Below, one piece after another: positions 3,155-63,508 of a stretch of DNA of 64,000 nt (its first letter is position 1; every line of letters begins with the position of its first letter). The notes below the pieces were generated by a model that was given only the letters and a program-made list of their open reading frames with translations, had not been told where the DNA came from and did no database searches. The translations under genes and the position numbers were made by a program. The DNA is from Escherichia coli. Lineage in GTDB: Bacteria; Pseudomonadota; Gammaproteobacteria; Enterobacterales; Enterobacteriaceae. Where the stretch lies: NCBI RefSeq assembly GCF_044324875.1, contig NZ_CP172185.1, one strand, 5' to 3'.

Positions 3155-3895
3155 TCAGGCTGTTACCAAAGAAGTTGCAACCTGGCGCTCATCAGAAATA
3201 ATGTGCGTTACCTCATCCAGATGCCCGATGCGGGCTTCCCCTGAACGATTAAATTTACTTTTATCAATCAATAACAACGATTGCGCGGCGCGTTTTAATA
3301 GCATTGATTTGTAATCAGCGTTGATGGCATTGGAGTCCCACAGTGCGCCGCTGCTATCGATCCCTTCACAAGAAAAAATAAACAGATCGATTTCCAGCGA
3401 TTTAAGTTGAGAAATCAGCGAGGGATTGACGTAACAGCCATATTTGCGCTCAAGTGTGCCGCCGGAACTGATCAGTTGAATGCGTTCGCGTTTACCGAGT
3501 TCATGGCAAATCGGATGGCTATTGGTGAAGACCTGGATGTTGATGTCAGGCAACTGGCGTGCCAGATACCAGCAGGTTGAACTTGCGTCTAAGGCTATTA
3601 CCATCCCTTCTTCAATCCACGCGAGCGCCTCGCGCGCGATATCTGCTTTATGCGCATAATGGCTTTTCAGCCGGATGTGAAAGGGATCGCCACTGTCTTG
3701 ATTTTGACGGTGGATATATTTAGCGCGCCCATGATTGCGCAGAATTTTACCCTGCGTCTGTAATTCATTGAGATCGCGACGAATGGTTTCTTTACTGACC
3801 TTTAGCTGTTCAGAGAGAGCTTCCGTGGTCAGGCTGGTATGGTTCAGCAGCAGGTCGACTATCGCTTGCTGGCGTGCCGCTTTCATATTTTTCAC
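3155..3895 (-). CDS. fucR: DeoR-family L-fucose operon activator FucR
   Basis: 246-aa ORF; likely true start at MKAARQQ (around 3886); DeoR HTH plus sugar-phosphate-binding C-domain. Confidence 0.9.
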   Translation of the reverse strand: MKNMKAARQQAIVDLLLNHTSLTTEALSEQLKVSKETIRRDLNELQTQGKILRNHGRAKYIHRQNQDSGDPFHIRLKSHYAHKADIAREALAWIEEGMVIALDASSTCWYLARQLPDINIQVFTNSHPICHELGKRERIQLISSGGTLERKYGCYVNPSLISQLKSLEIDLFIFSCEGIDSSGALWDSNAINADYKSMLLKRAAQSLLLIDKSKFNRSGEARIGHLDEVTHIISDERQVATSLVTA

Positions 3896-53230: not shown

Positions 53231-55030
53231 ATGACGACACAGGTCCCACCTTCCGCGTTGCTTCCGTTGAACCCGGAGCAACTGGCACGCCTTCAGGCGG
53301 CCACGACCGATTTAACTCCCACCCAGCTTGCCTGGGTTTCTGGCTATTTCTGGGGCGTGCTCAACCAGCAGCCAGCTGCGCTTGCAGCGACGCCAGCGCC
53401 CGCCGCAGAAATGCCGGATATAACTATTATCTCCGCTTCGCAAACCGGCAATGCGCGCCGGGTTGCTGAAGCATTACGCGATGATTTATTGGCGGCAAAA
53501 CTGAACGTTAAGCTGGTGAACGCGGGCGACTATAAATTCAAACAAATCGCCAGCGAAAAACTGCTTATCGTGGTGACGTCAACGCAAGGGGAAGGGGAAC
53601 CGCCGGAAGAAGCCGTCGCGCTGCATAAGTTCCTGTTCTCCAAAAAAGCGCCAAAGCTGGAAAACACTGCATTTGCCGTGTTTAGCCTCGGCGATAGCTC
53701 TTATGAATTTTTCTGCCAGTCCGGGAAAGATTTTGACAGCAAGCTGGCGGAACTGGGCGGTGAACGCCTGCTCGACCGTGTCGATGCCGACGTTGAATAC
53801 CAGGCTGCTGCCATCGAGTGGCGCGCCCGCGTGGTTGATATTCTGAAGTCCCGTGCGCCTGTCGCGGCACCTTCGCAATCCGTCGCTACTGGCGCGGTAA
53901 ATGAAATCCACACCAGCCCGTACAGCAAAGACGCGCCGCTGGTGGCGAGCCTCTCTGTTAACCAGAAAATTACCGGGCGTAACTCTGAAAAAGACGTTCG
54001 CCATATCGAAATTGACTTAGGTGACTCGGGCCTGCGTTACCAGCCGGGTGACGCGCTGGGCGTCTGGTATCAGAACGATCCGGCACTGGTGAAAGAACTT
54101 GTCGAACTGCTGTGGCTGAAAGGCGATGAAACTGTCACCGTTGACGGCAAAACGCTGACCCTGAGCGAAGCGCTCCAGTGGCACTTTGAACTCACCGTCA
54201 ACACCGCGAATATTGTTGAGAACTACGCCACGCTTACCCGCAGCGAAACGCTGCTGCCGCTGGTGGGCGATAAAGCGAAGTTACAGCATTACGCCGCGAC
54301 CACGCCGATTGTTGACATGGTGCGTTTCTCTCCGGCGCAACTGGATGCCGAAGCGCTGATTAACCTGTTGCGCCCGCTGACCCCGCGCCTGTATTCCATC
54401 GCCTCCTCGCAGGCGGAAGTCGAGAACGAAGTGCACGTTACCGTTGGTGTGGTGCGTTACGACGTGGAAGGCCGCGCCCGTGCCGGTGGTGCCTCCAGCT
54501 TCCTCGCGGATCGTGTGGAAGAAGAGGGTGAAGTCCGCGTCTTTATCGAACATAACGACAACTTCCGCCTGCCCGCTAACCCGGAAACCCCGGTGATCAT
54601 GATTGGCCCTGGCACCGGCATCGCGCCGTTCCGTGCCTTTATGCAGCAGCGTGCTGCCGACGAAGCGCCGGGTAAAAACTGGCTATTCTTTGGCAACCCA
54701 CACTTTACGGAAGATTTCCTCTACCAGGTGGAGTGGCAGCGCTACGTGAAAGAAGGCGTATTGAGCCGCATCGATCTTGCCTGGTCGCGCGACCAAAAAG
54801 AAAAAGTTTATGTACAAGACAAACTGCGCGAACAGGGCGCGGAGCTGTGGCGCTGGATCAATGACGGTGCCCACATTTATGTCTGCGGCGACGCTAATCG
54901 CATGGCGAAAGACGTTGAGCAGGCACTTCTGGAAGTGATTGCCGAATTTGGTGGCATGGACACCGAAGCGGCGGATGAATTTTTAAGTGAGCTGCGCGTA
55001 GAGCGCCGTTATCAGCGAGATGTCTACTAA
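53231..55030 (+). CDS. cysJ: Sulfite reductase [NADPH] flavoprotein alpha component CysJ
   Basis: 599 aa; flavodoxin plus FAD/NADPH domains. Confidence 0.95.
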
Positions 55031-56742
55031 TGAGCGAAAAACATCCAGGGCCTTTAGTGGTCGAAGGAAAACTGACAGACGCCGAGCGCATGAAGCTTGA
55101 AAGCAACTACCTGCGCGGCACCATTGCGGAAGATTTAAACGACGGTCTGACCGGTGGTTTTAAGGGCGACAACTTCCTGCTGATCCGCTTCCACGGCATG
55201 TATCAGCAGGATGACCGCGACATCCGCGCTGAACGTGCTGAACAGAAGCTGGAGCCGCGTCATGCGATGCTGCTGCGCTGTCGTCTGCCGGGTGGGGTGA
55301 TTACCACCAAACAGTGGCAGGCGATCGATAAATTTGCCGGTGAAAACACCATTTATGGCAGCATTCGCCTGACCAACCGCCAGACGTTCCAGTTCCATGG
55401 CATTCTGAAAAAGAACGTCAAACCGGTGCACCAGATGCTGCACTCAGTCGGTCTTGATGCGCTGGCGACCGCCAACGACATGAACCGTAACGTACTCTGT
55501 ACCTCGAACCCTTACGAGTCGCAGCTGCACGCGGAATCCTATGAATGGGCGAAGAAAATATCTGAACATCTGCTGCCGCGTACCCGCGCGTATGCGGAGA
55601 TCTGGCTCGATCAGGAAAAAGTCGCCACCACCGATGAAGAACCGATCCTCGGTCAGACTTATTTGCCGCGTAAATTCAAAACCACGGTAGTGATCCCGCC
55701 GCAGAACGATATCGATCTGCACGCCAACGACATGAACTTCGTGGCGATCGCCGAAAACGGCAAGCTGGTGGGCTTTAACCTGCTGGTGGGCGGTGGGCTT
55801 TCCATCGAGCACGGCAACAAGAAAACCTACGCCCGCACGGCGAGTGAGTTTGGTTATCTGCCGCTGGAGCATACGCTGGCGGTGGCAGAAGCCGTCGTGA
55901 CGACTCAGCGCGACTGGGGTAACCGTACCGATCGTAAAAATGCCAAAACCAAATACACGCTGGAGCGCGTGGGGGTTGAGACGTTTAAAGCGGAAGTGGA
56001 GCGTCGCGCGGGGATCAAATTTGAACCGATCCGTCCGTATGAGTTTACCGGACGCGGCGATCGTATTGGTTGGGTTAAGGGCATTGATGATAACTGGCAC
56101 CTGACGCTGTTTATCGAAAATGGTCGCATCCTTGATTATCCGGGGCGTCCGCTGAAAACTGGCCTGCTGGAGATCGCGAAGATCCACAAAGGTGATTTCC
56201 GCATTACGGCGAACCAGAATCTGATCATCGCCGGTGTGCCGGAAAGCGAGAAAGCGAAGATCGAGAAGATCGCCAAAGAGAGCGGGTTAATGAATGCCGT
56301 CACGCCGCAGCGTGAAAACTCAATGGCCTGCGTGTCATTCCCGACTTGCCCGCTGGCGATGGCCGAAGCCGAGCGTTTCCTGCCGTCTTTTATCGACAAC
56401 ATCGATAATTTAATGGCGAAACATGGTGTCAGCGATGAGCATATCGTGATGCGTGTAACAGGCTGCCCGAACGGTTGTGGTCGCGCGATGCTGGCGGAAG
56501 TGGGCCTGGTGGGTAAAGCGCCGGGTCGCTACAACCTGCATCTTGGCGGCAACCGCATTGGGACACGTATCCCACGGATGTATAAAGAAAACATCACCGA
56601 GCCGGAAATCCTGGCGTCGCTTGATGAACTGATAGGGCGCTGGGCGAAAGAGCGCGAAGCGGGTGAAGGCTTCGGCGACTTTACGGTGCGTGCGGGCATC
56701 ATTCGCCCGGTGCTCGATCCGGCGCGCGATTTGTGGGATTAA
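55030..56742 (+). CDS. cysI: Sulfite reductase [NADPH] hemoprotein beta component CysI
   Basis: 570 aa; ATGA overlap with the cysJ stop. Confidence 0.95.
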
Positions 56743-56744
56743 CC

Positions 56745-56800
56745 ATCAGCCCGGTCTTGTAGGCCTGATAAGACGCGTGAGCGTCGCATCAGGCAAGGCA
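56745..56800. repeat. REP element between cysI and cysH (GCCTGATAAGACGCGTGAGCGTCGCATCAGGC)
   Basis: Canonical REP palindrome. Confidence 0.55.
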
Positions 56801-56815
56801 AACAGTGAGGAATCT

Positions 56816-57550
56816 ATGTCCAAACTCGATCTAAACGCCCTGAACGAACTGCCGAAGGTAGATCGCATTCTGGCGCTGGCAGAAACTAACGCCGAACTGG
56901 AAAAACTGGATGCTGAAGGCCGCGTTGCCTGGGCGCTGGATAATCTGCCCGGTGAATATGTACTTTCTTCCAGTTTCGGCATTCAGGCGGCGGTGAGCCT
57001 GCATCTGGTGAATCAGATTCACCCGGATATCCCGGTGATCCTGACCGATACGGGTTATCTGTTCCCGGAAACCTACCGCTTTATTGACGAGTTAACGGAC
57101 AAACTCAAGCTCAACCTGAAAGTGTACCGCGCTACCGAAAGCGCCGCCTGGCAGGAAGCGCGCTACGGCAAACTGTGGGAGCAGGGTGTTGAAGGCATTG
57201 AAAAGTACAATGACATCAACAAAGTCGAACCGATGAACCGGGCGCTGAAAGAACTGAATGCGCAAACGTGGTTTGCTGGCCTGCGCCGCGAACAATCCGG
57301 CAGTCGCGCCAATTTACCGGTGCTGGCAATTCAGCGTGGCGTATTTAAAGTGCTGCCGATTATCGACTGGGATAACCGAACGATATATCAGTATCTGCAA
57401 AAACATGGCCTGAAATATCATCCATTATGGGACGAAGGATATTTATCCGTCGGTGATACCCATACAACCCGTAAATGGGAACCCGGCATGGCGGAAGAAG
57501 AAACGCGTTTCTTTGGCTTAAAAAGGGAATGTGGGCTGCACGAAGGGTAA
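56816..57550 (+). CDS. cysH: Phosphoadenosine phosphosulfate (PAPS) reductase CysH
   Basis: 244 aa from [14 protein letters not shown]; ORF track's upstream extension to 56663 runs through the REP and is implausible. Confidence 0.95.
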
Positions 57551-57815
57551 AATATCGTACCGCTTAATAAACGTCTCTGTCTGAAAAGATGGGGGCGTTT
57601 TTATTTTGCGAGCAGCATTCCTGATTTTAAACGTGAACGCCGCTGGAAGAATTATCAAGTATAGAATGGCGTTGGGTGCTTGAGGCTGTCTGGCGTTAAG
57701 CATTCGCGAGGTTCCAGATGGACAAAAGCCCCAGGCGATATTTCTATCAACCTGAGGCCAGCGTTCGAACCTAAGCAATTCGAATGTTAGTCTCTTCTTT
57801 GCAGGGAGGCAAGAC

Positions 57816-57968
57816 ATGCTGACAAAATATGCCCTTGTGGCAATCATCGTACTGTGTTGTACAGTACTGGGATTCACGCTGATGGTAGGCGACTCGTTGT
57901 GTGAGTTGAGTATCAGAGAACGTGGTATGGAGTTTAAGGCAGTTCTCGCTTACGAATCGAAGAAGTAG
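57816..57968 (+). CDS. Hok/Gef-family type I toxin (HokE-like), 50 aa
   Basis: [50 protein letters not shown] is near-identical in pattern to HokE ([31 protein letters not shown]...KAVLAYEPKK); single TM plus conserved Cys; 3' GC hairpin CGCGGGGG-UAAAA-CCCCGCG at 57975-57994; below the ORF-track size cutoff. Confidence 0.8.
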
Positions 57969-58319
57969 CCACCACGCGGGGGTAAAACCCCGCGTATTGA
58001 ATTGTGATGGTTTGGTCTCCTGCACCCTTTTTTAATTTATATTGTTTATGTGAATATTATGCCTATGTTTATTATTCATATATATTACGGATGAAAATTA
58101 TTTGATTATTCATAATGTGCAAAATGGCATCTGAATCGATCGCAGTTTGGCATTCGAATCGATCATGATTTGGCATCCATCTCCGATCACAGTTTGGCAT
58201 CACAATCGATCACGATTTGGCATGCTTCCGATCATTGATTGGCATCCTGCCAGTCACTCCGGGAATTAACTCTTTTCACCACAGTCTCCATTGCCGTGTT
58301 TAAACCAGTGGAGACGTCA

Positions 58320-59885
58320 ATGTCCAGAAAGAGAAAATCCAGGAGCACTATGGAAACCTGTTTTAAGATCCTTCAGCTCAAGTTCGACAAGAAGCTGACT
58401 AACCGTTGTATCGGACTGACGTTACACATCAGCGCCTCAACCGTTTTTGAGGTTCTTGCCCGCTTCAAAGCCTCTTCTCTGTCATGGCCATTACCTGCTG
58501 ATATATCCCATGACACGCTGGAGAAACTCATTTTTCCGCCCAAAGACACCTTTGCATCAGAGCTTGTAATGCCTGACATGTTGTACTTCGATACGGAAAT
58601 GAGAAAACCAGGTGTGACGCGGCAACTGTTGTGGATGGAATACAAGGCACAGGCGGGTAACAAAGCGATGGGATACTCGCACTTCTGCCGTTGCTACCGG
58701 GAGTGGAAAAAAACGCGACGTCTCTCCATGCGCCAGGAGCATCGTGCCGGCGAAAAGCTTTTTATCGACTTCTGTGGTCCTACGGTTCCTGTTATTAATC
58801 CGGACACCGGTGAGATACGCCGCGTGGCAATCTTCGTGGCCGTAATGGGGGCGTCCAACTATACCTACGTTGAAGCGTGCGAAGGTCAGGACATGATGTC
58901 ATGGTTAAATGCCCACAGCCGTTGCCTGACCTTCCTGGGCGGCGTACCGAAGCTGCTCATCCCCGATAACCTCAGAAGCGCAGTGAAAAAGGCCGATCGA
59001 TATGAGCCTGTCATCAACGACAGTTATCAGGCACTGGCTGAGCACTATGGCACGGTTATCATCCCGGCCCGACCACGCAAACCTAAAGATAAACCAAAAG
59101 CAGAAAACGGCGTCCTCATCGTTGAACGATGGCTTCTTGCCCGCATCCGTAATGAAACCTTCCACACGCTCAGGGCGCTGAATGCGCGCCTTAGGGAGTT
59201 ACTGACAGACATGAATAACCGGCCAATGAAGGGGTACGGCAATCAAACCCGTGCAGAACGCTTCCGCATACTGGATGCGCCAGCACTCTCTCCGCTGCCT
59301 CTGGCACCTTATGAATACACGGAATACAAAGCTGTGAAGGTTGGCCCTGACTACCACGTTGAATATGCCCGTCACTGGTACTCCGTTCCACACGAACTGG
59401 TCGGTCAGCGTCTGTCACTGAAGGCGGGGCAGTCGGTGGTACAGCTCTGGCACAAGGGGCAGTGTGTGGCGCAACATCCGCGCAGCACACATGAATATAA
59501 ACACACAACCAATCCGCTTCACATGCCAGAGCGCCACCGGCAGCACGGGACATGGACACCGGAACGCCTGATCGAGCAGGGAAAACGTACGGGCCCGTCC
59601 ACAGGCCGGGTGGTTGAATCCATGCTGAAGGCAAAACCCCATCCGGAACTGGCTTATCGTGCAGTTCTGGGGCTGCTGGCACTTCAGAAAAAATACGGCC
59701 CGGAACGGCTGGAAAAGGCCTGTTACGTTGCCCTGCACTATAACGCCCCTGACAGACGCTTTATCGACAATCTGCTGCGTCACCATCGGGAGAACCTGGA
59801 GCTTCCATTATCCCGCCAGGGCGAACAACATCCGGCATATGCTTCAGAGCATGAAAACCTGCGTGGTCCGGGCTACTACCACTGA
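58320..59885 (+). CDS. istA: IS21-family transposase IstA (HTH plus DDE integrase core)
   Basis: 521 aa from ATG 58320 (SD ggagacg); integrase-core-like region (FIDFCGP...VAVMGASNYTYVEACE). Confidence 0.85.
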   Translation: MSRKRKSRSTMETCFKILQLKFDKKLTNRCIGLTLHISASTVFEVLARFKASSLSWPLPADISHDTLEKLIFPPKDTFASELVMPDMLYFDTEMRKPGVTRQLLWMEYKAQAGNKAMGYSHFCRCYREWKKTRRLSMRQEHRAGEKLFIDFCGPTVPVINPDTGEIRRVAIFVAVMGASNYTYVEACEGQDMMSWLNAHSRCLTFLGGVPKLLIPDNLRSAVKKADRYEPVINDSYQALAEHYGTVIIPARPRKPKDKPKAENGVLIVERWLLARIRNETFHTLRALNARLRELLTDMNNRPMKGYGNQTRAERFRILDAPALSPLPLAPYEYTEYKAVKVGPDYHVEYARHWYSVPHELVGQRLSLKAGQSVVQLWHKGQCVAQHPRSTHEYKHTTNPLHMPERHRQHGTWTPERLIEQGKRTGPSTGRVVESMLKAKPHPELAYRAVLGLLALQKKYGPERLEKACYVALHYNAPDRRFIDNLLRHHRENLELPLSRQGEQHPAYASEHENLRGPGYYH

Positions 59886-59901
59886 CAGAAGGAACAACAG
59901 T

Positions 59902-60657
59902 ATGAGTGATAACCTGTTAAACAAACTGACCCAACTGAAACTCCCGGCGATGGCCGGGAGCCTGATACGGCAGCGGGAAACGCCTCAGACCTACGACGAA
60001 CTGTCGTTCGAGGAAAGGCTGACGCTGCTGGTTGATGACGAGCTTCTGAGCAGGGAAAACAGCCGTGTGGCACGGTTGAGAAAAAATGCCGGCCTGAAAT
60101 ACCAGGCAACACCGGAAGGGCTGCGCTATCCGGCCTCAAGAGGTCTGCGGGCTGAACAGATGAGAGAACTGCTGAACGGCCACTACATAACCCACAGGAA
60201 AAACCTGCTGATAACCGGTCCGACAGGATGTGGCAAGAGCTGGATAGCCAATGCGCTGGGCGAACAGGCATGTCGACAGAAACACAGCGTCCGGTACTGT
60301 AGAACCGGGCGATTACTGGAACAACTGGCTCAGGGACGTGTTGATGGCAGCTGGCTGAAATATCTGAAACAGTTGCAAAAAATACAGGTTCTAATCCTGG
60401 ACGATCTGGGGCTGGAACAGTTAAGTAACGCCCAGTGTAATGACCTTCTGGAGCTCATAGAGGATCGTTACGGACAAAGCAGCACGATAGTGGTAAGCCA
60501 GTTCCCGGTAGATAAATGGCATGGTCTGATGGAGAACCCAACAACAGCAGATGCCATCCTGGACAGACTGGTACATAACTCACACCGAGTGGTCCTTCAG
60601 GGAGAGTCACTGAGGAAAAATCCCCCGGTAGTGGAAAGCAGCGAAAAAACGCGTTAA
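59902..60657 (+). CDS. istB: IS21-family helper ATPase IstB (Walker A GPTGCGKS)
   Basis: 251 aa from ATG 59902 (SD aaggaac); AAA+ IstB family. Confidence 0.85.
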   Translation: MSDNLLNKLTQLKLPAMAGSLIRQRETPQTYDELSFEERLTLLVDDELLSRENSRVARLRKNAGLKYQATPEGLRYPASRGLRAEQMRELLNGHYITHRKNLLITGPTGCGKSWIANALGEQACRQKHSVRYCRTGRLLEQLAQGRVDGSWLKYLKQLQKIQVLILDDLGLEQLSNAQCNDLLELIEDRYGQSSTIVVSQFPVDKWHGLMENPTTADAILDRLVHNSHRVVLQGESLRKNPPVVESSEKTR

Positions 60658-60808
60658 AAAGCGGTAGAAAAAGTTAAGTTCCCGGTTGATCGAATGGATG
60701 CGAATCGCTGATCGGACTTCGATGCCAATCCGTGATCGAATAGAGCGGAATACGCACATAATGTAAATATTTTATTGAACGATATATATCACAGATAATT
60801 TTTAATAT

Positions 60809-63508
60809 ATGCGTAAATATCCTTTAAGTTTACTGAAGGATAAAAATATTGTGACTTTTTTTGATTTCTGGGGAAAAACCCGACGCGGCGAGAAAGACGG
60901 GGGCGACGACTATCACCTTCTTTGCTGGCATTCGCTGGATGTAGCCGCGATGGGCTATTTAATGGTTAAAAGCAATTGCTTCGGGCTGACTGACTATTTT
61001 CGTCAACTAGGTTTCGCTGATACGGAGCAGGCAGCACAATTTTTCGCCTGGCTATTGTGCTGGCACGATACTGGAAAATTTGCCCGCTCTTTTCAGCAAC
61101 TTTACCTGCACCCACAACTCAAGGTTCCGGAAGGCGCAAGAAAGAATTACGAAAAGATCTCTCATTCAACGCTGGGCTACTGGCTGTGGCATCATTATTT
61201 AAGTGAATACGAAGAATTGCTTCCTTCATCTTCACTCTCTCCGCGCAAACTTAAACGGGTGATGGAGATGTGGATGCCCATAACTACCGGGCATCATGGT
61301 CGCCCGCCTGACCGTATTGATGAACTGGATAATTTTCTGCCTGAAGACAAAGCTGCCGCGCGAGATTTTCTTCTTGAAATCAAACCACTGTTTCCGCTCA
61401 TAGAGATCCCCGCATTCTGGGATGATGATGAGGGCATTGAACTTATAAAACACCTTTCCTGGTATATCTCTGCAACCGTCGTGCTCGCAGACTGGACGGG
61501 TTCGTCAACGCGATTTTTTCCACGCGTCGCACACCCAATGGATATTAAAGGTTACTGGCAGAAAACTTTAGTTCAGGCTCAAAACGCCTTAACCGTCTTT
61601 CCTCTAAAAGCAAAAGTCGCGCCTTTCACCGGAATTAATACGCTGTTTCCTTTTATTGAGAATCCGACACCGTTACAGCAAAAGGTGCTGGATCTGGATA
61701 TCAGCCAGCCAGGGCCACAGTTATTTATTCTGGAAGATGTGACTGGCGCAGGTAAAACGGAAGCGGCGCTTATCCTGGCGCACAGGTTGATGGCTGCGGG
61801 TAAAGCGCAGGGTTTGTTTTTTGGCCTGCCAACAATGGCAACGGCCAATGCCATGTACGATCGACTGGTCAAAACCTGGCTTGCTTTCTATTCGCCAGAG
61901 TCCCGCCCCAGCCTGGTGCTGGCACACAGTGCCCGAACATTAATGGACCGCTTTAATGAATCACTCTGGTCCGGTGATTTAGTCGGGTCAGAAGAACCGG
62001 ATGAACAAACGTTCAGTCAGGGATGTGCGGCCTGGTTTGCCGACAGTAACAAGAAGGCGCTACTGGCTGAAATTGGCGTCGGCACGCTGGATCAGGCGAT
62101 GATGGCTGTGATGCCGTTCAAACATAATAATCTGCGGCTTCTGGGACTGAGTAACAAAATCCTGCTGGCTGATGAGATCCATGCCTGTGACGCTTACATG
62201 TCATGCATTCTTGAAGGGCTGATCGAGCGGCAGGCGCGTGGCGGAAACAGCGTCATTTTGCTTTCTGCCACGTTATCTCAACAGCAGTGCGACAAACTCG
62301 TTGCTGCCTTTGCGCGTGGTACAGAGGGCCAGCAAGAAGCTCCGTTCCTGGAAAAGGATGATTACCCCTGGCTGACGCACGTTACGAAATCCGATGTGCA
62401 TTCACACCGGGTAGCGACGCGCAAAGACGTTGAGCGTAGCGTGAGCGTGGGTTGGCTTCATAGCGAACAAGAATGTATTGCGCGTATCGAATCGGCAGTA
62501 AGTCAGGGGAAATGCATCGCCTGGATCCGGAATTCTGTCGATGACGCTATTAAGGTTTATCGTCAGTTGCTTGCCCGCGGCGTCATTCCTGCTTCCAGCC
62601 TTTCTCTGTTTCATAGCCGCTTTGCTTTTAGCGATCGCCAGCGAATTGAAACGGAAACGCTGGCACGCTTCGGTAAAGAAGATAGCTCACAGCGTGCCGG
62701 AAAAGTCCTCATTTGTACTCAGGTCTTAGAGTCGAGCGTTGATTGCGATATGGACGAAATGATTTCCGACCTGGCCCCTGTTGATTTGCTGATCCAGCGA
62801 GCGGGGCGATTACAGCGGCATATCCGCGATATTAATGGTCAGTTAAAGCGTGACGGAAAAGACGAGCGTTCCCCTCCTGAATTGCTGATTCTGGCCCCCG
62901 TCTGGGACGACGCTCCAGGTGACGAATGGTTCGGCAGTGCCATGCGTAACAGTGCATATGTCTATCCCGATCATGGACGAATCTGGCTGACGCAGCGTGT
63001 ACTGCGTGAGCAAGGCGCTATTCAAATGCCACACGCAGCCCGCCTTCTTATTGAATCAGTCTACGGTGAGGACGTGGTAATGCCGGAAGGATTTGCCCGC
63101 AGCGAGCAGGAGCAAGTGGGCAAATATTACTGCGATCGCGCAATGGCTAAAAAGTTTGTGCTGAACTTCAGGCCTGGCTATGCCGCCAATATCAACGATT
63201 ACCTTCCGGAAAAGCTGTCGACACGTCTGGCGGAGGAGTCTGTTTCCCTGTGGCTGGCTACCTGTATTGCCAGTGTGGTGAAGCCTTATGCCAACGGTGC
63301 TCACGCATGGGAAATGAGCGTTGTCAGAGTGCGTCGAAGCTGGTGGAAAAAACATCGGGATGAGTTTTCTTTACTGGAAGGGGAAGCGTTCAGGCAGTGG
63401 TGCATTGAACAGCGGAAAGATCCGGAGATGGCAAACGTGATTTTAGTTACCGATGACGAAAGTTGCGGGTATTCGGCTATGGAAGGATTGACTGGCAAGG
63501 TTGGTTGA
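60809..63508 (+). CDS. cas3: Type I-E Cas3 nuclease/helicase (HD plus SF2 helicase), non-K-12 variant
   Basis: 899-aa ORF; HD motif HSLDVAA, Walker A GAGKTEAA, DExH-like DEIH; alternative GTG start at 60848 with SD aagga; sequence diverges strongly from K-12 Cas3. Confidence 0.9.
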   Translation: MRKYPLSLLKDKNIVTFFDFWGKTRRGEKDGGDDYHLLCWHSLDVAAMGYLMVKSNCFGLTDYFRQLGFADTEQAAQFFAWLLCWHDTGKFARSFQQLYLHPQLKVPEGARKNYEKISHSTLGYWLWHHYLSEYEELLPSSSLSPRKLKRVMEMWMPITTGHHGRPPDRIDELDNFLPEDKAAARDFLLEIKPLFPLIEIPAFWDDDEGIELIKHLSWYISATVVLADWTGSSTRFFPRVAHPMDIKGYWQKTLVQAQNALTVFPLKAKVAPFTGINTLFPFIENPTPLQQKVLDLDISQPGPQLFILEDVTGAGKTEAALILAHRLMAAGKAQGLFFGLPTMATANAMYDRLVKTWLAFYSPESRPSLVLAHSARTLMDRFNESLWSGDLVGSEEPDEQTFSQGCAAWFADSNKKALLAEIGVGTLDQAMMAVMPFKHNNLRLLGLSNKILLADEIHACDAYMSCILEGLIERQARGGNSVILLSATLSQQQCDKLVAAFARGTEGQQEAPFLEKDDYPWLTHVTKSDVHSHRVATRKDVERSVSVGWLHSEQECIARIESAVSQGKCIAWIRNSVDDAIKVYRQLLARGVIPASSLSLFHSRFAFSDRQRIETETLARFGKEDSSQRAGKVLICTQVLESSVDCDMDEMISDLAPVDLLIQRAGRLQRHIRDINGQLKRDGKDERSPPELLILAPVWDDAPGDEWFGSAMRNSAYVYPDHGRIWLTQRVLREQGAIQMPHAARLLIESVYGEDVVMPEGFARSEQEQVGKYYCDRAMAKKFVLNFRPGYAANINDYLPEKLSTRLAEESVSLWLATCIASVVKPYANGAHAWEMSVVRVRRSWWKKHRDEFSLLEGEAFRQWCIEQRKDPEMANVILVTDDESCGYSAMEGLTGKVG

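Follow-up and report, generated by a model that had tools for sequence, protein, structure and literature searches.

Insertion of an intact ISSso4-type IS21-family element between hok and cas3 in an Escherichia coli cas-E1 type I-E CRISPR-Cas locus

The cryptic bgl operon, which is silenced by H-NS, is activated by IS1 or IS5. The fucAO genes are likewise activated by IS5 (PMC11894529), and for IS21-family elements the described cases of hybrid promoters include the IS21 junction promoter, ISKpn7-blaKPC, and ISBf1-cepA (PMC9330008). Insertion sequences have also been reported in the neighborhood of CRISPR-Cas genes, as IS186 and an uncharacterized IS are listed in the iap-cysH region of E. coli (Almendros et al. 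2014, PMC3903273). In E. coli K-12, cas3 forms its own transcription unit, which is influenced by CRP and H-NS (PMC7019758, PMC4782391), and the CRP footprint on its promoter is reported to extend from -38 to -66 (PMC7019758). When H-NS is absent from K-12 cells, Cas3 is reported to be the factor that limits type I-E interference (PMC4782391), and an effect of an IS on cas3 expression would thus be of modest interest.

The window analyzed here is a stretch of 64,000 nucleotides of E. coli DNA (contig NZ_CP172185.1 of assembly GCF_044324875.1), in which an IS lies in the AT-rich spacer between hok and cas3 of a cas-E1 type I-E locus (Table 1). The features that define the cas-E1 variant (Almendros et al. 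2014) are present, namely an exact match to the cas3E1-R primer at 60890-60909, an intact hok/sok link, and a variant-specific spacer; the rest of the cas operon is located beyond the window end, such that the assignment rests on the 5′ part of cas3, hok/sok, and the spacer. The hok/sok module is undisturbed by the IS, and is represented by a match to Rfam sok (RF01794) at 57674-57831 with 111.7 bits and by a Pfam HOK_GEF match on a 50-aa ORF at 57816-57968.

Table 1. Positions of the features in and around the hok-cas3 spacer (window numbering).
Feature	Position	Strand	Basis
hok/sok module, intact, undisturbed by the IS	57674..57968	+	Rfam and Pfam
Distal variable AT-rich hok-cas3 spacer, ~24% GC, parted from cas3 by the IS	58000..58110		Composition and alignments
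Target-site duplication (TSD), left copy, CATAATG, 7 bp	58111..58117		Flush with IS left end
ISSso4-type IS21-family insertion sequence	58118..60756	+	Limits set by comparing 14 other copies
IS left end: terminal repeat and five subterminal repeats spaced ~23 bp (GATCnnnGnTTGGCAT)	58118..58246	+	Repeat search and regex scan
istA, transposase, 511 aa, intact	58350..59885	+	Pfam rve and Mu-transpos_C_2
istB, AAA+ helper ATPase, 251 aa, intact, reads toward cas3	59902..60657	+	Pfam IstB_IS21, E = 1e-60
IS right end: two inverted subterminal repeat copies and terminal sequence	60698..60756	+	Inverted-repeat search and regex scan
TSD, right copy, CATAATG, 7 bp	60757..60763		Flush with IS right end
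Native conserved cas3 upstream sequence, 94 nt, still joined to cas3	60757..60850	+	Alignments
Candidate 9-bp hairpin in putative cas3 leader, covers AAGGA Shine-Dalgarno of the GTG	60818..60842	+	Folding; weak evidence
cas3, cas-E1 variant, 885 aa from the probable GTG start, intact	60851..63508	+	Pfam Cas3_HD and start-codon comparison

The element is an intact ISSso4-type member of the IS21 family with a length of 2,639 bp. It is a known and catalogued IS, and the event is of a known kind. The designation ISSso4 is an ISfinder name that reaches this element through the PGAP/RefSeq family label on its proteins, rather than through comparison with a nucleotide reference. A DDE transposase gene (istA) is followed on the same strand by istB after a gap of 16 nt, which is the gene order of the IS21 family, and both predicted proteins match, without a difference, those encoded by istA and istB in strain GPEC1040 (WP_045147483.1 and WP_001282653.1, respectively). 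The RefSeq labels on identical copies read 'IS21 family transposase' and 'IS21-like element ISSso4 family helper ATPase IstB'. These labels and the Pfam matches agree with the first-pass annotation of this DNA, which had recognized an IS21-family element, its orientation, and its position within the hok-cas3 spacer, directly before cas3. Comparison with the 14 other copies gives the termini as TGCAAAATGG...GGAATACGCA, with TG...CA ends, and the bases beyond TGCAAAATGG...AATACGCA vary in every copy compared. Repeated motifs are present inside both ends, as in other IS21-type termini. A regex scan places the left-end subterminal copies at start positions 58138, 58161, 58185, 58208, and 58230, and the right-end matches at 60698-60713 and 60722-60737. 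By analogy with IS21, these subterminal repeats would be putative multiple binding sites for IstA.

A single intact copy of the IS has transposed into the hok-cas3 spacer, leaving cas3 and its downstream flank untouched. The element is bordered by a perfect direct repeat, CATAATG, although the first-pass annotation had reported that no clean TSD could be identified. Its placement of the IS was sound, but the limits that it gave (58111 and about 60763) enclose both TSD copies and lie beyond the ends of the element itself. The comparison with an IS-free locus that it had proposed bears out the insertion and the duplication. Specifically, strain 7/2, whose site is empty, carries CATAATG only once in its spacer (positions 3412-3418 of that locus), and in-silico excision of the IS plus one TSD copy yields 855 bp that align in a single piece and with 100% identity to many E. 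coli genomes. Target duplications of the IS21 family measure 4-8 bp (ISfinder/TnPedia), and the 7-bp repeat is thus a short direct target duplication of this family's kind; the TSD length is 4-7 bp in 13 of the 15 IS copies examined. By itself, the empty site fits a 5-bp TSD as well as one of 7 bp. A 5-bp reading (CATAA, with the IS starting TGTGC) was considered and dropped because the 14 other copies place the two bases before TGCAAAATGG in the flank. The last base of the IS is located 52 nt from the annotated cas3 ATG (60809) and 94 nt from the GTG at 60851, and the distance of 45 bp that had been given earlier holds when the count to the ATG begins at the end of the TSD. Neither the 899-aa Cas3 translation nor 3,239 nt of the right flank differs from the counterpart in strain 7/2.

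This insertion is an ordinary, recent, and strain-specific event. Over its 2,639 bp, the IS copy in the window shows no mismatch to copies in four other replicons, and it differs from other E. coli copies by 0-8 mismatches. Since the element matches copies located elsewhere base for base and its junction is absent from the complete E. coli genomes searched, the insertion is recent and confined to the strain. Among the 5,426 complete E. coli genomes, 216 carry a copy that spans 80% or more of the query. In many E. coli genomes the element is multi-copy, reaching 24 places in one genome. The junction between the IS and the spacer was found in none of these 5,426 genomes (best coverage of 92%), and a second search returned no place covering at least 80%. 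Nor is the spacer a hotspot for IS elements, as it is uninterrupted in 2,769 genomes and split in about two, with only two extra places among the 3,235 matching records of the spacer search. One of these split spacers, among about 2,770 genomes with the spacer, was examined and carries IS1A.

The cas3 gene encodes the HD nuclease, SF2 helicase core, and C-terminal domain of the Cas3 signature in one intact ORF, with Pfam matches to Cas3_HD (1e-31), DEAD, and Cas3-like_C_2 (1e-33), of which the DEAD match is weak (25.5 bits versus a cut-off of 26). The RefSeq-style annotation begins the gene at the ATG at 60809 and yields a protein of 899 aa. However, the true start is probably the GTG at 60851, in which case the ATG has been misannotated and the cas-E1 cas3 start is probably 14 codons too long. 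We doubt the ATG because relatives tolerate indels in the stretch from it to the GTG, and because the gene begins at the GTG in species that are further removed. One-base indels in this interval are present in CT282, AH02, Escherichia sp. MOD1, Pseudocitrobacter, and E. coli SCPM-O-B-8794, and NIST0056 has 1-nt indels around the cas3 start, where the comparison concerned the indels rather than the reading frame. In E. albertii, Intestinirhabdus, and C. sedlakii, there is no in-frame ATG upstream, and a GTG occupies the homologous position. Moreover, position 1 of the Pfam Cas3_HD model aligns to residue 7 of the protein that starts at the GTG. The overlong start call has a practical consequence, in that it makes pipelines label at least one intact gene as 'frameshifted': the 885-aa ORF of CT282 is intact from the GTG, yet its annotation carries this term.

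Alignments reveal strong conservation from TTATTCATAATG to the GTG, whereas the sequence upstream of TTATTCATAATG is variable. Escherichia, Shigella, and Pseudocitrobacter share this conserved block, whose first bases, TTATTCATAATG, coincide with the site of insertion. In the window, the block is still attached to cas3, downstream of the IS, and the retained 94 nt has a GC content of 19%. The TTATT directly 5′ of the duplication is part of the conserved block as well, and has been displaced by the IS. On the other side of the element, 111 nt of AT-rich DNA is now 2.6 kb away from cas3, and this distal spacer varies between lineages and has many indels, among them a 41-bp deletion in Escherichia sp. 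MOD1. The earlier claim that the IS displaces the native cas3 promoter is therefore unsupported, as the conserved block stays with cas3 and the DNA that moved is variable spacer; the sequence gives no evidence that a promoter was removed.

From its conservation, the 94-nt block is probably the core promoter and leader of cas3, and it marks where to seek these uncharacterized cas-E1 elements. We found no mapped transcription start site for the cas-E1 cas3 gene (O157 and related) in the literature. It is also conceivable that the conservation of the block reflects a leader or an operator rather than a promoter. Within the putative leader, the candidate hairpin has a predicted MFE of -8.2 kcal/mol (z = -2.1). 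RNAalifold finds the same stem with 9 predicted pairs and with a 1-nt indel in the loop; two one-sided changes keep one of the pairs, and two sequences lose the innermost pair. No double covariation was found in this hairpin among the aligned sequences, which are too similar and exhibit one-sided changes only.

No convincing sigma-70 promoter, either native or IS-hybrid, can be called in this region, and the scans cannot place the promoter. A strict sigma-70 consensus scan yielded no promoter on either side of the junction. With a simple PWM scan that was built from hexamer frequencies and judged against shuffled sequence, the best native candidate (TTTATT-17-GATAAT, 60771-60799) scored 7.0 bits versus a median best of 8.3 bits in the shuffles. 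The best IS-derived -35 (TCGAAT at 60736, a 3/6 match) pairs across a 17-nt spacer with TAATGT for 4.96 bits, which is below both the best wholly native candidate and the shuffle median, and pairings of IS -35 sequences with CATAAT gave no more than 4.1 bits. Hexamers of the right end match TTGACA at 3/6 positions at most (TCGAAT, TAGAGC), and none that resembles TTGACA is present in the last 25 nt. The first-pass annotation had pointed out that IS21-family ends can create outward-reading hybrid promoters, and this is true in general (PMC9330008). Its extension to the present locus, with cas3 driven by a promoter borne on the IS, is not borne out by these scores or by the empty strict scan. 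Our scans found no terminator on the + strand between istB and cas3, and read-through from istAB into cas3 is possible.

The candidate explanations of what the insertion may do to cas3 expression differ in how well they fit the locus. We lean toward the view that the IS left the conserved cas3-proximal regulatory block and the GTG start in place and took away distal DNA only. The 94 nt between the IS and the GTG would then comprise a conserved regulatory block, consisting of a core promoter and a leader whose hairpin covers the Shine-Dalgarno sequence. Given the GTG start and this block, it is reasonable to suppose that the core promoter was most likely retained, and that the lost part would be distal, poorly conserved AT-rich DNA. 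The expected outcome would be a modest or conditional shift in cas3 regulation, perhaps through altered spreading of H-NS or weak read-through from istAB, and both the outright loss of a promoter and the construction of a new one by the IS seem less likely than such a modest change. It is unlikely that the native promoter lay upstream of the insertion or straddled it, with a displaced -35 or UP element and with CATAAT as its -10, such that cas3 is now silent or strongly reduced and CRISPR interference in the strain is weakened. The splitting of the spacer and the relocation of its distal AT-rich part would suit such silencing, as would the 5/6 match of the duplicated CATAAT to the -10 hexamer and the lack of a visible strong promoter in the retained 94 nt, and natural IS-mediated inactivation of CRISPR-Cas has been documented (PMC10359306). 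However, conservation within the spacer is lowest in the DNA that was displaced, of which Escherichia sp. MOD1 lacks 41 bp, and the empty site offers no acceptable -35 located 16-18 bp upstream of CATAAT (CGGATG, GGATGA, ACGGAT). Furthermore, the conserved block and leader are still joined to cas3.

We consider it quite improbable that cas3 is instead driven from the IS, by a hybrid promoter or by istAB read-through, and has thereby been uncoupled from H-NS-type silencing. Junction and hybrid promoters are known for IS21-family elements (PMC9330008), and H-NS represses K-12 cas3 in stationary phase (PMC4782391). At this locus, istA and istB face cas3 with no terminator-like structure from the istB stop to cas3, the -10-like CATAAT abuts the IS end, and 2.6 kb of DNA with ~50% GC inside a tract of ~20-25% GC could break silencing. 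Against these points stand the weak IS-derived -35 sequences and the lack of a TTGACA-like hexamer in the last 25 nt of the right end. In addition, the internal istA promoter of IS21-type elements is weak except in the tandem junction form. It is more doubtful still that the separation of the conserved block from the AT-rich tract and istAB read-through have together relieved H-NS-type silencing and rendered Cas3 constitutive, which, if true, would be a natural IS-activated CRISPR nuclease, like the activation of bgl or fucAO by IS elements. Finally, the IS might have been misplaced when repeats were collapsed by the assembler, since multi-copy elements of this type often cause misassembly. 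This prospect is negligible, as a misjoin would not yield a perfect 7-bp TSD along with flanks that rejoin exactly to a known empty site.

As found, the insertion is of little importance, as it adds one more case of a common E. coli IS landing beside an intact gene in a single strain. If the expression of cas3 is altered, then it would be of modest importance as a natural switch of CRISPR immunity that involves the loss of no cas gene.

The element shares with ISSso4 its istA-istB organization, the ISSso4 family labels on IstA and IstB, the TG...CA ends, and the multiple subterminal repeats. In these features the element shows no difference, and only its insertion site sets it apart. Its arrangement also resembles those of bgl, fucAO, ISKpn7-blaKPC, and ISBf1-cepA, in which an IS resides in an AT-rich region shortly upstream of a poorly expressed gene with its right end toward that gene. 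However, no outward -35 or fusion promoter can be recognized here, and the resemblance is positional only.

The locus is also similar to K-12 cas-E2, where a short (~95 bp) AT-rich, variant-specific region is located beside a hok/sok remnant or module, and the 94 nt retained here is of similar length. The CRP site and promoter of K-12 have no counterpart in this locus because homology between the cas-E2 and cas-E1 variants ends at the hok ATG. We set aside the K-12 promoter and CRP site as a guide to promoter location, since the upstream regions are non-homologous and the analogy is one of length only.

The nearest precedents for a natural IS in an enterobacterial type I-E cas locus come from Sheng et al. 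2023 (PMC10359306), on IS elements that change or eliminate CRISPR-Cas function, and from Almendros et al. 2014 (PMC3903273), on E. coli CRISPR-I arrangements that IS elements have shaped. In those examples, the IS elements interrupt cas coding sequences or mediate deletions, whereas the element described here belongs to a different family, is intergenic, and leaves the visible cas sequence intact.

Within 58111-60808, upstream of cas3, lies a complete insertion sequence that, as the first-pass annotation had recognized, belongs to the IS21 family. Its two ORFs are on the same strand and have Pfam matches expected of istA and istB, and copies elsewhere carry the RefSeq labels "IS21 family transposase" and "IS21-like element ISSso4 family helper ATPase IstB". 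The left end has five subterminal repeats spaced by about 23 bp (GATCnnnGnTTGGCAT) plus a terminal copy, and the right end has two inverted copies of the subterminal repeat plus the terminal one. Such a multi-repeat end architecture is typical of IS21-family elements.

The exact ends were set by comparison with 14 other copies. Because the two bases preceding TGCAAAATGG differ from copy to copy, the element runs TGCAAAATGG...GGAATACGCA and is 2,639 bp long; this same variation rules out ends of TGTGC...CGCA with a 5-bp duplication, CATAA. The limits first proposed, 58111 and about 60763, place the element correctly, although they are the outer edges of a target-site duplication that was overlooked at that stage, when no clean duplication was reported. 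Direct repeats of 4-7 bp lie flush with the ends in 13 of the 15 copies, the window included (4 bp in one, 5 bp in three, 6 bp, the commonest, in six, and 7 bp in three). Five of these 13 duplications start with CAT. The two copies that have no duplication, on a tet(X4) plasmid (L089) and in a prophage (L092), suggest later rearrangement.

Positions of features in and around the insertion
Feature	Position	Remarks
sok	57674-57831	Rfam; upstream of the element
hok	57816-57968	Intact; Pfam HOK_GEF; ATG at 57816
Target duplication, left copy	58111-58117	CATAATG, 7 bp; flush with element end
Insertion sequence	58118-60756	
istA	58350-59885	IstA, 511 aa; Pfam rve and Mu-transpos_C_2
istB	59902-60657	IstB, 251 aa; Pfam IstB_IS21, E = 1e-60
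Hybrid promoter candidate	60736-60764	TCGAAT-17-TAATGT
Target duplication, right copy	60757-60763	CATAATG, 7 bp; flush with element end
Retained promoter candidate	60771-60799	TTTATT-17-GATAAT
cas3 ATG (RefSeq)	60809	
Hairpin in putative cas3 leader	60818-60842	UAUCCUUUA/UGAAGGAUA, 9 bp
cas3 GTG (probable start)	60851	
cas3E1-R primer match	60890-60909	

Removing the element and one repeat copy in silico yields 855 bp that match many E. coli chromosomes, strain 7/2 for example, at 100% in a single piece, and CATAATG occurs only once in this empty-site spacer. A misassembly would not yield such a duplication. We consider this structural description to be very nearly certain.

A megablast search of 58000-60900 against 5,426 complete E. 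coli genomes found the element in 216 of them at ≥80% coverage, on both chromosomes and plasmids and in up to 24 places per genome. Across all 2,639 bp, the window copy matches those of four other replicons, a tet(X4) plasmid among them, without a single mismatch. Translated, its istA and istB give exactly the proteins of the GPEC1040 CDSs annotated as WP_045147483.1 and WP_001282653.1. Given these identities, the element is intact and its insertion is probably young.

The junction of the element with the spacer was present in none of the 5,426 genomes, where no match covered more than 92% of the 2.9-kb query, and a 241-bp query across the right junction gave no place with ≥80% coverage. The reconstructed spacer is unbroken in 2,769 genomes, with only two extra places in 3,235 matching records. 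Only about two spacers are split in some 2,770 genomes, one of them in strain JMK_KBN3987, where an IS1A (about 1790-2560 of the extracted locus, L002) directly follows hok, some 180 bp ahead of the annotated cas3 ATG. Because the junction is absent and the spacer so widely unbroken, the hok-cas3 spacer is not an IS hotspot, and the insertion is private to this strain.

The E. coli type I-E system here is of the cas-E1 variant that Almendros et al. 2014 (PMC3903273) defined, and their cas3E1-R primer matches exactly. Strain 7/2 shares the annotated 899-aa Cas3 and 3,239 nt of right flank without a difference; the visible part of the cas operon ends at the window edge, with the remainder beyond it. 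An ungapped comparison of the left flank with that strain falls out of register within 54800-57700 (2,046 mismatches in 3,316 nt, the last 416 nt being identical), and this implies one or more indels before position 57700, either within the cysI-cysH region or in the gap between cysH and hok.

The conserved start of cas3 is probably the in-frame GTG, and the RefSeq ATG would then be 42 nt too far upstream. One-base indels lie between the two codons in E. coli CT282, AH02, and SCPM-O-B-8794, in Escherichia sp. MOD1, and in Pseudocitrobacter, and in CT282 (L104, 171-2871) an ORF of 885 aa runs intact from the GTG despite the "frameshifted" annotation. Escherichia albertii, Intestinirhabdus alba, and Citrobacter sedlakii have a GTG at the homologous position and no ATG in the in-frame upstream sequence. 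Moreover, tblastn matches to distant relatives start at residues 13-17 when counted from the ATG, and Pfam Cas3_HD begins at residue 7 when counted from the GTG. An AAGGA is placed 10 nt before the GTG, while no Shine-Dalgarno sequence precedes the ATG. The 45 bp reported initially between element and gene is correct as a count from the duplication edge to the ATG; with the GTG as start, the distance from the element is therefore 94 nt.

RefSeq flags several cas-E1 cas3 genes (CT282, AH02, FORC_042, and NIST0056) as "frameshifted", "internal stop", or "partial". Where a 1-nt indel falls in the ATG-GTG interval, a "frameshifted" pseudogene call can result, CT282 being the one case checked. The AH02 gene appears truly truncated. 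In FORC_042 this interval is free of indels, which places its frameshift somewhere else. In nucleotide sequence, NIST0056 also has 1-nt indels around the start. The predicted hairpin in the putative leader (z = -2.1) spans the AAGGA Shine-Dalgarno sequence. Its loop carries an inter-lineage 1-nt indel, and two one-sided changes preserve one pair; double covariation is absent across the compared lineages. In E. albertii, a different hairpin folds over its AGGA.

The general premise that IS21-family ends form hybrid promoters has literature support, including a junction promoter for IS21 and hybrid promoters for ISKpn7 and ISBf1 (PMC9330008). For this element, the proposal of an IS-driven cas3 promoter is wrong or unproven: no hexamer in the terminal 25 nt at the right end exceeds 3/6 matches to TTGACA, the best hybrid candidate scores 4.96 bits with an ad hoc hexamer-frequency PWM, and pairings that use the duplication's CATAAT reach at most 4.1 bits with that PWM. 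Support for an IS-built promoter is thus weak. Read-through from istA/istB is a more concrete possibility; both genes are oriented toward cas3, and no terminator was detected between istB and cas3 by a terminator scan or by folding of 60650-60860 (z = -1.2, no hairpin with a trailing U-run). Because the spacer is 19-24% GC versus about 50% for the element, and because H-NS represses cas3 in stationary-phase K-12 (PMC4782391), it is also conceivable that the insertion alters cas3 silencing in either direction, though de-silencing by the element strikes us as quite unlikely.

Displacement of a native promoter, also claimed initially, is wrong or unproven as well. Spacer alignments of ten Escherichia, Shigella, and Pseudocitrobacter lineages reveal strong conservation from TTATTCATAATG to the GTG, preceded by about 100 bp that are variable and indel-rich (41 bp of it absent from Escherichia sp. 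MOD1). The element has landed at the upstream edge of this block, which stays with cas3 while the variable stretch has been moved; because CATAATG was duplicated, only TTATT of the block is parted from the gene. A strict consensus scan found no promoter in the spacer, and the best retained candidate scores 7.0 bits with the same ad hoc PWM, below the shuffled-sequence median best of 8.3 bits. Since the scans give no promoter above chance and we found no transcription start site for cas-E1 cas3 in the literature, we infer with modest confidence, from the conserved block and by analogy with K-12, that the core promoter and leader most likely lie in the retained 94 nt.

K-12, a cas-E2 strain, has just ~95 bp of variant-specific sequence upstream of cas3, with a CRP footprint on the cas3 promoter reported at -38 to -66 (PMC7019758). 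Its homology with the cas-E1 locus stops exactly at the hok ATG, and it retains sokX and the hok leader without hok, whereas hok and sok are both intact in the window. The element itself is catalogued and this type of event is familiar, with IS insertions in cas loci on record (PMC10359306, PMC3903273).
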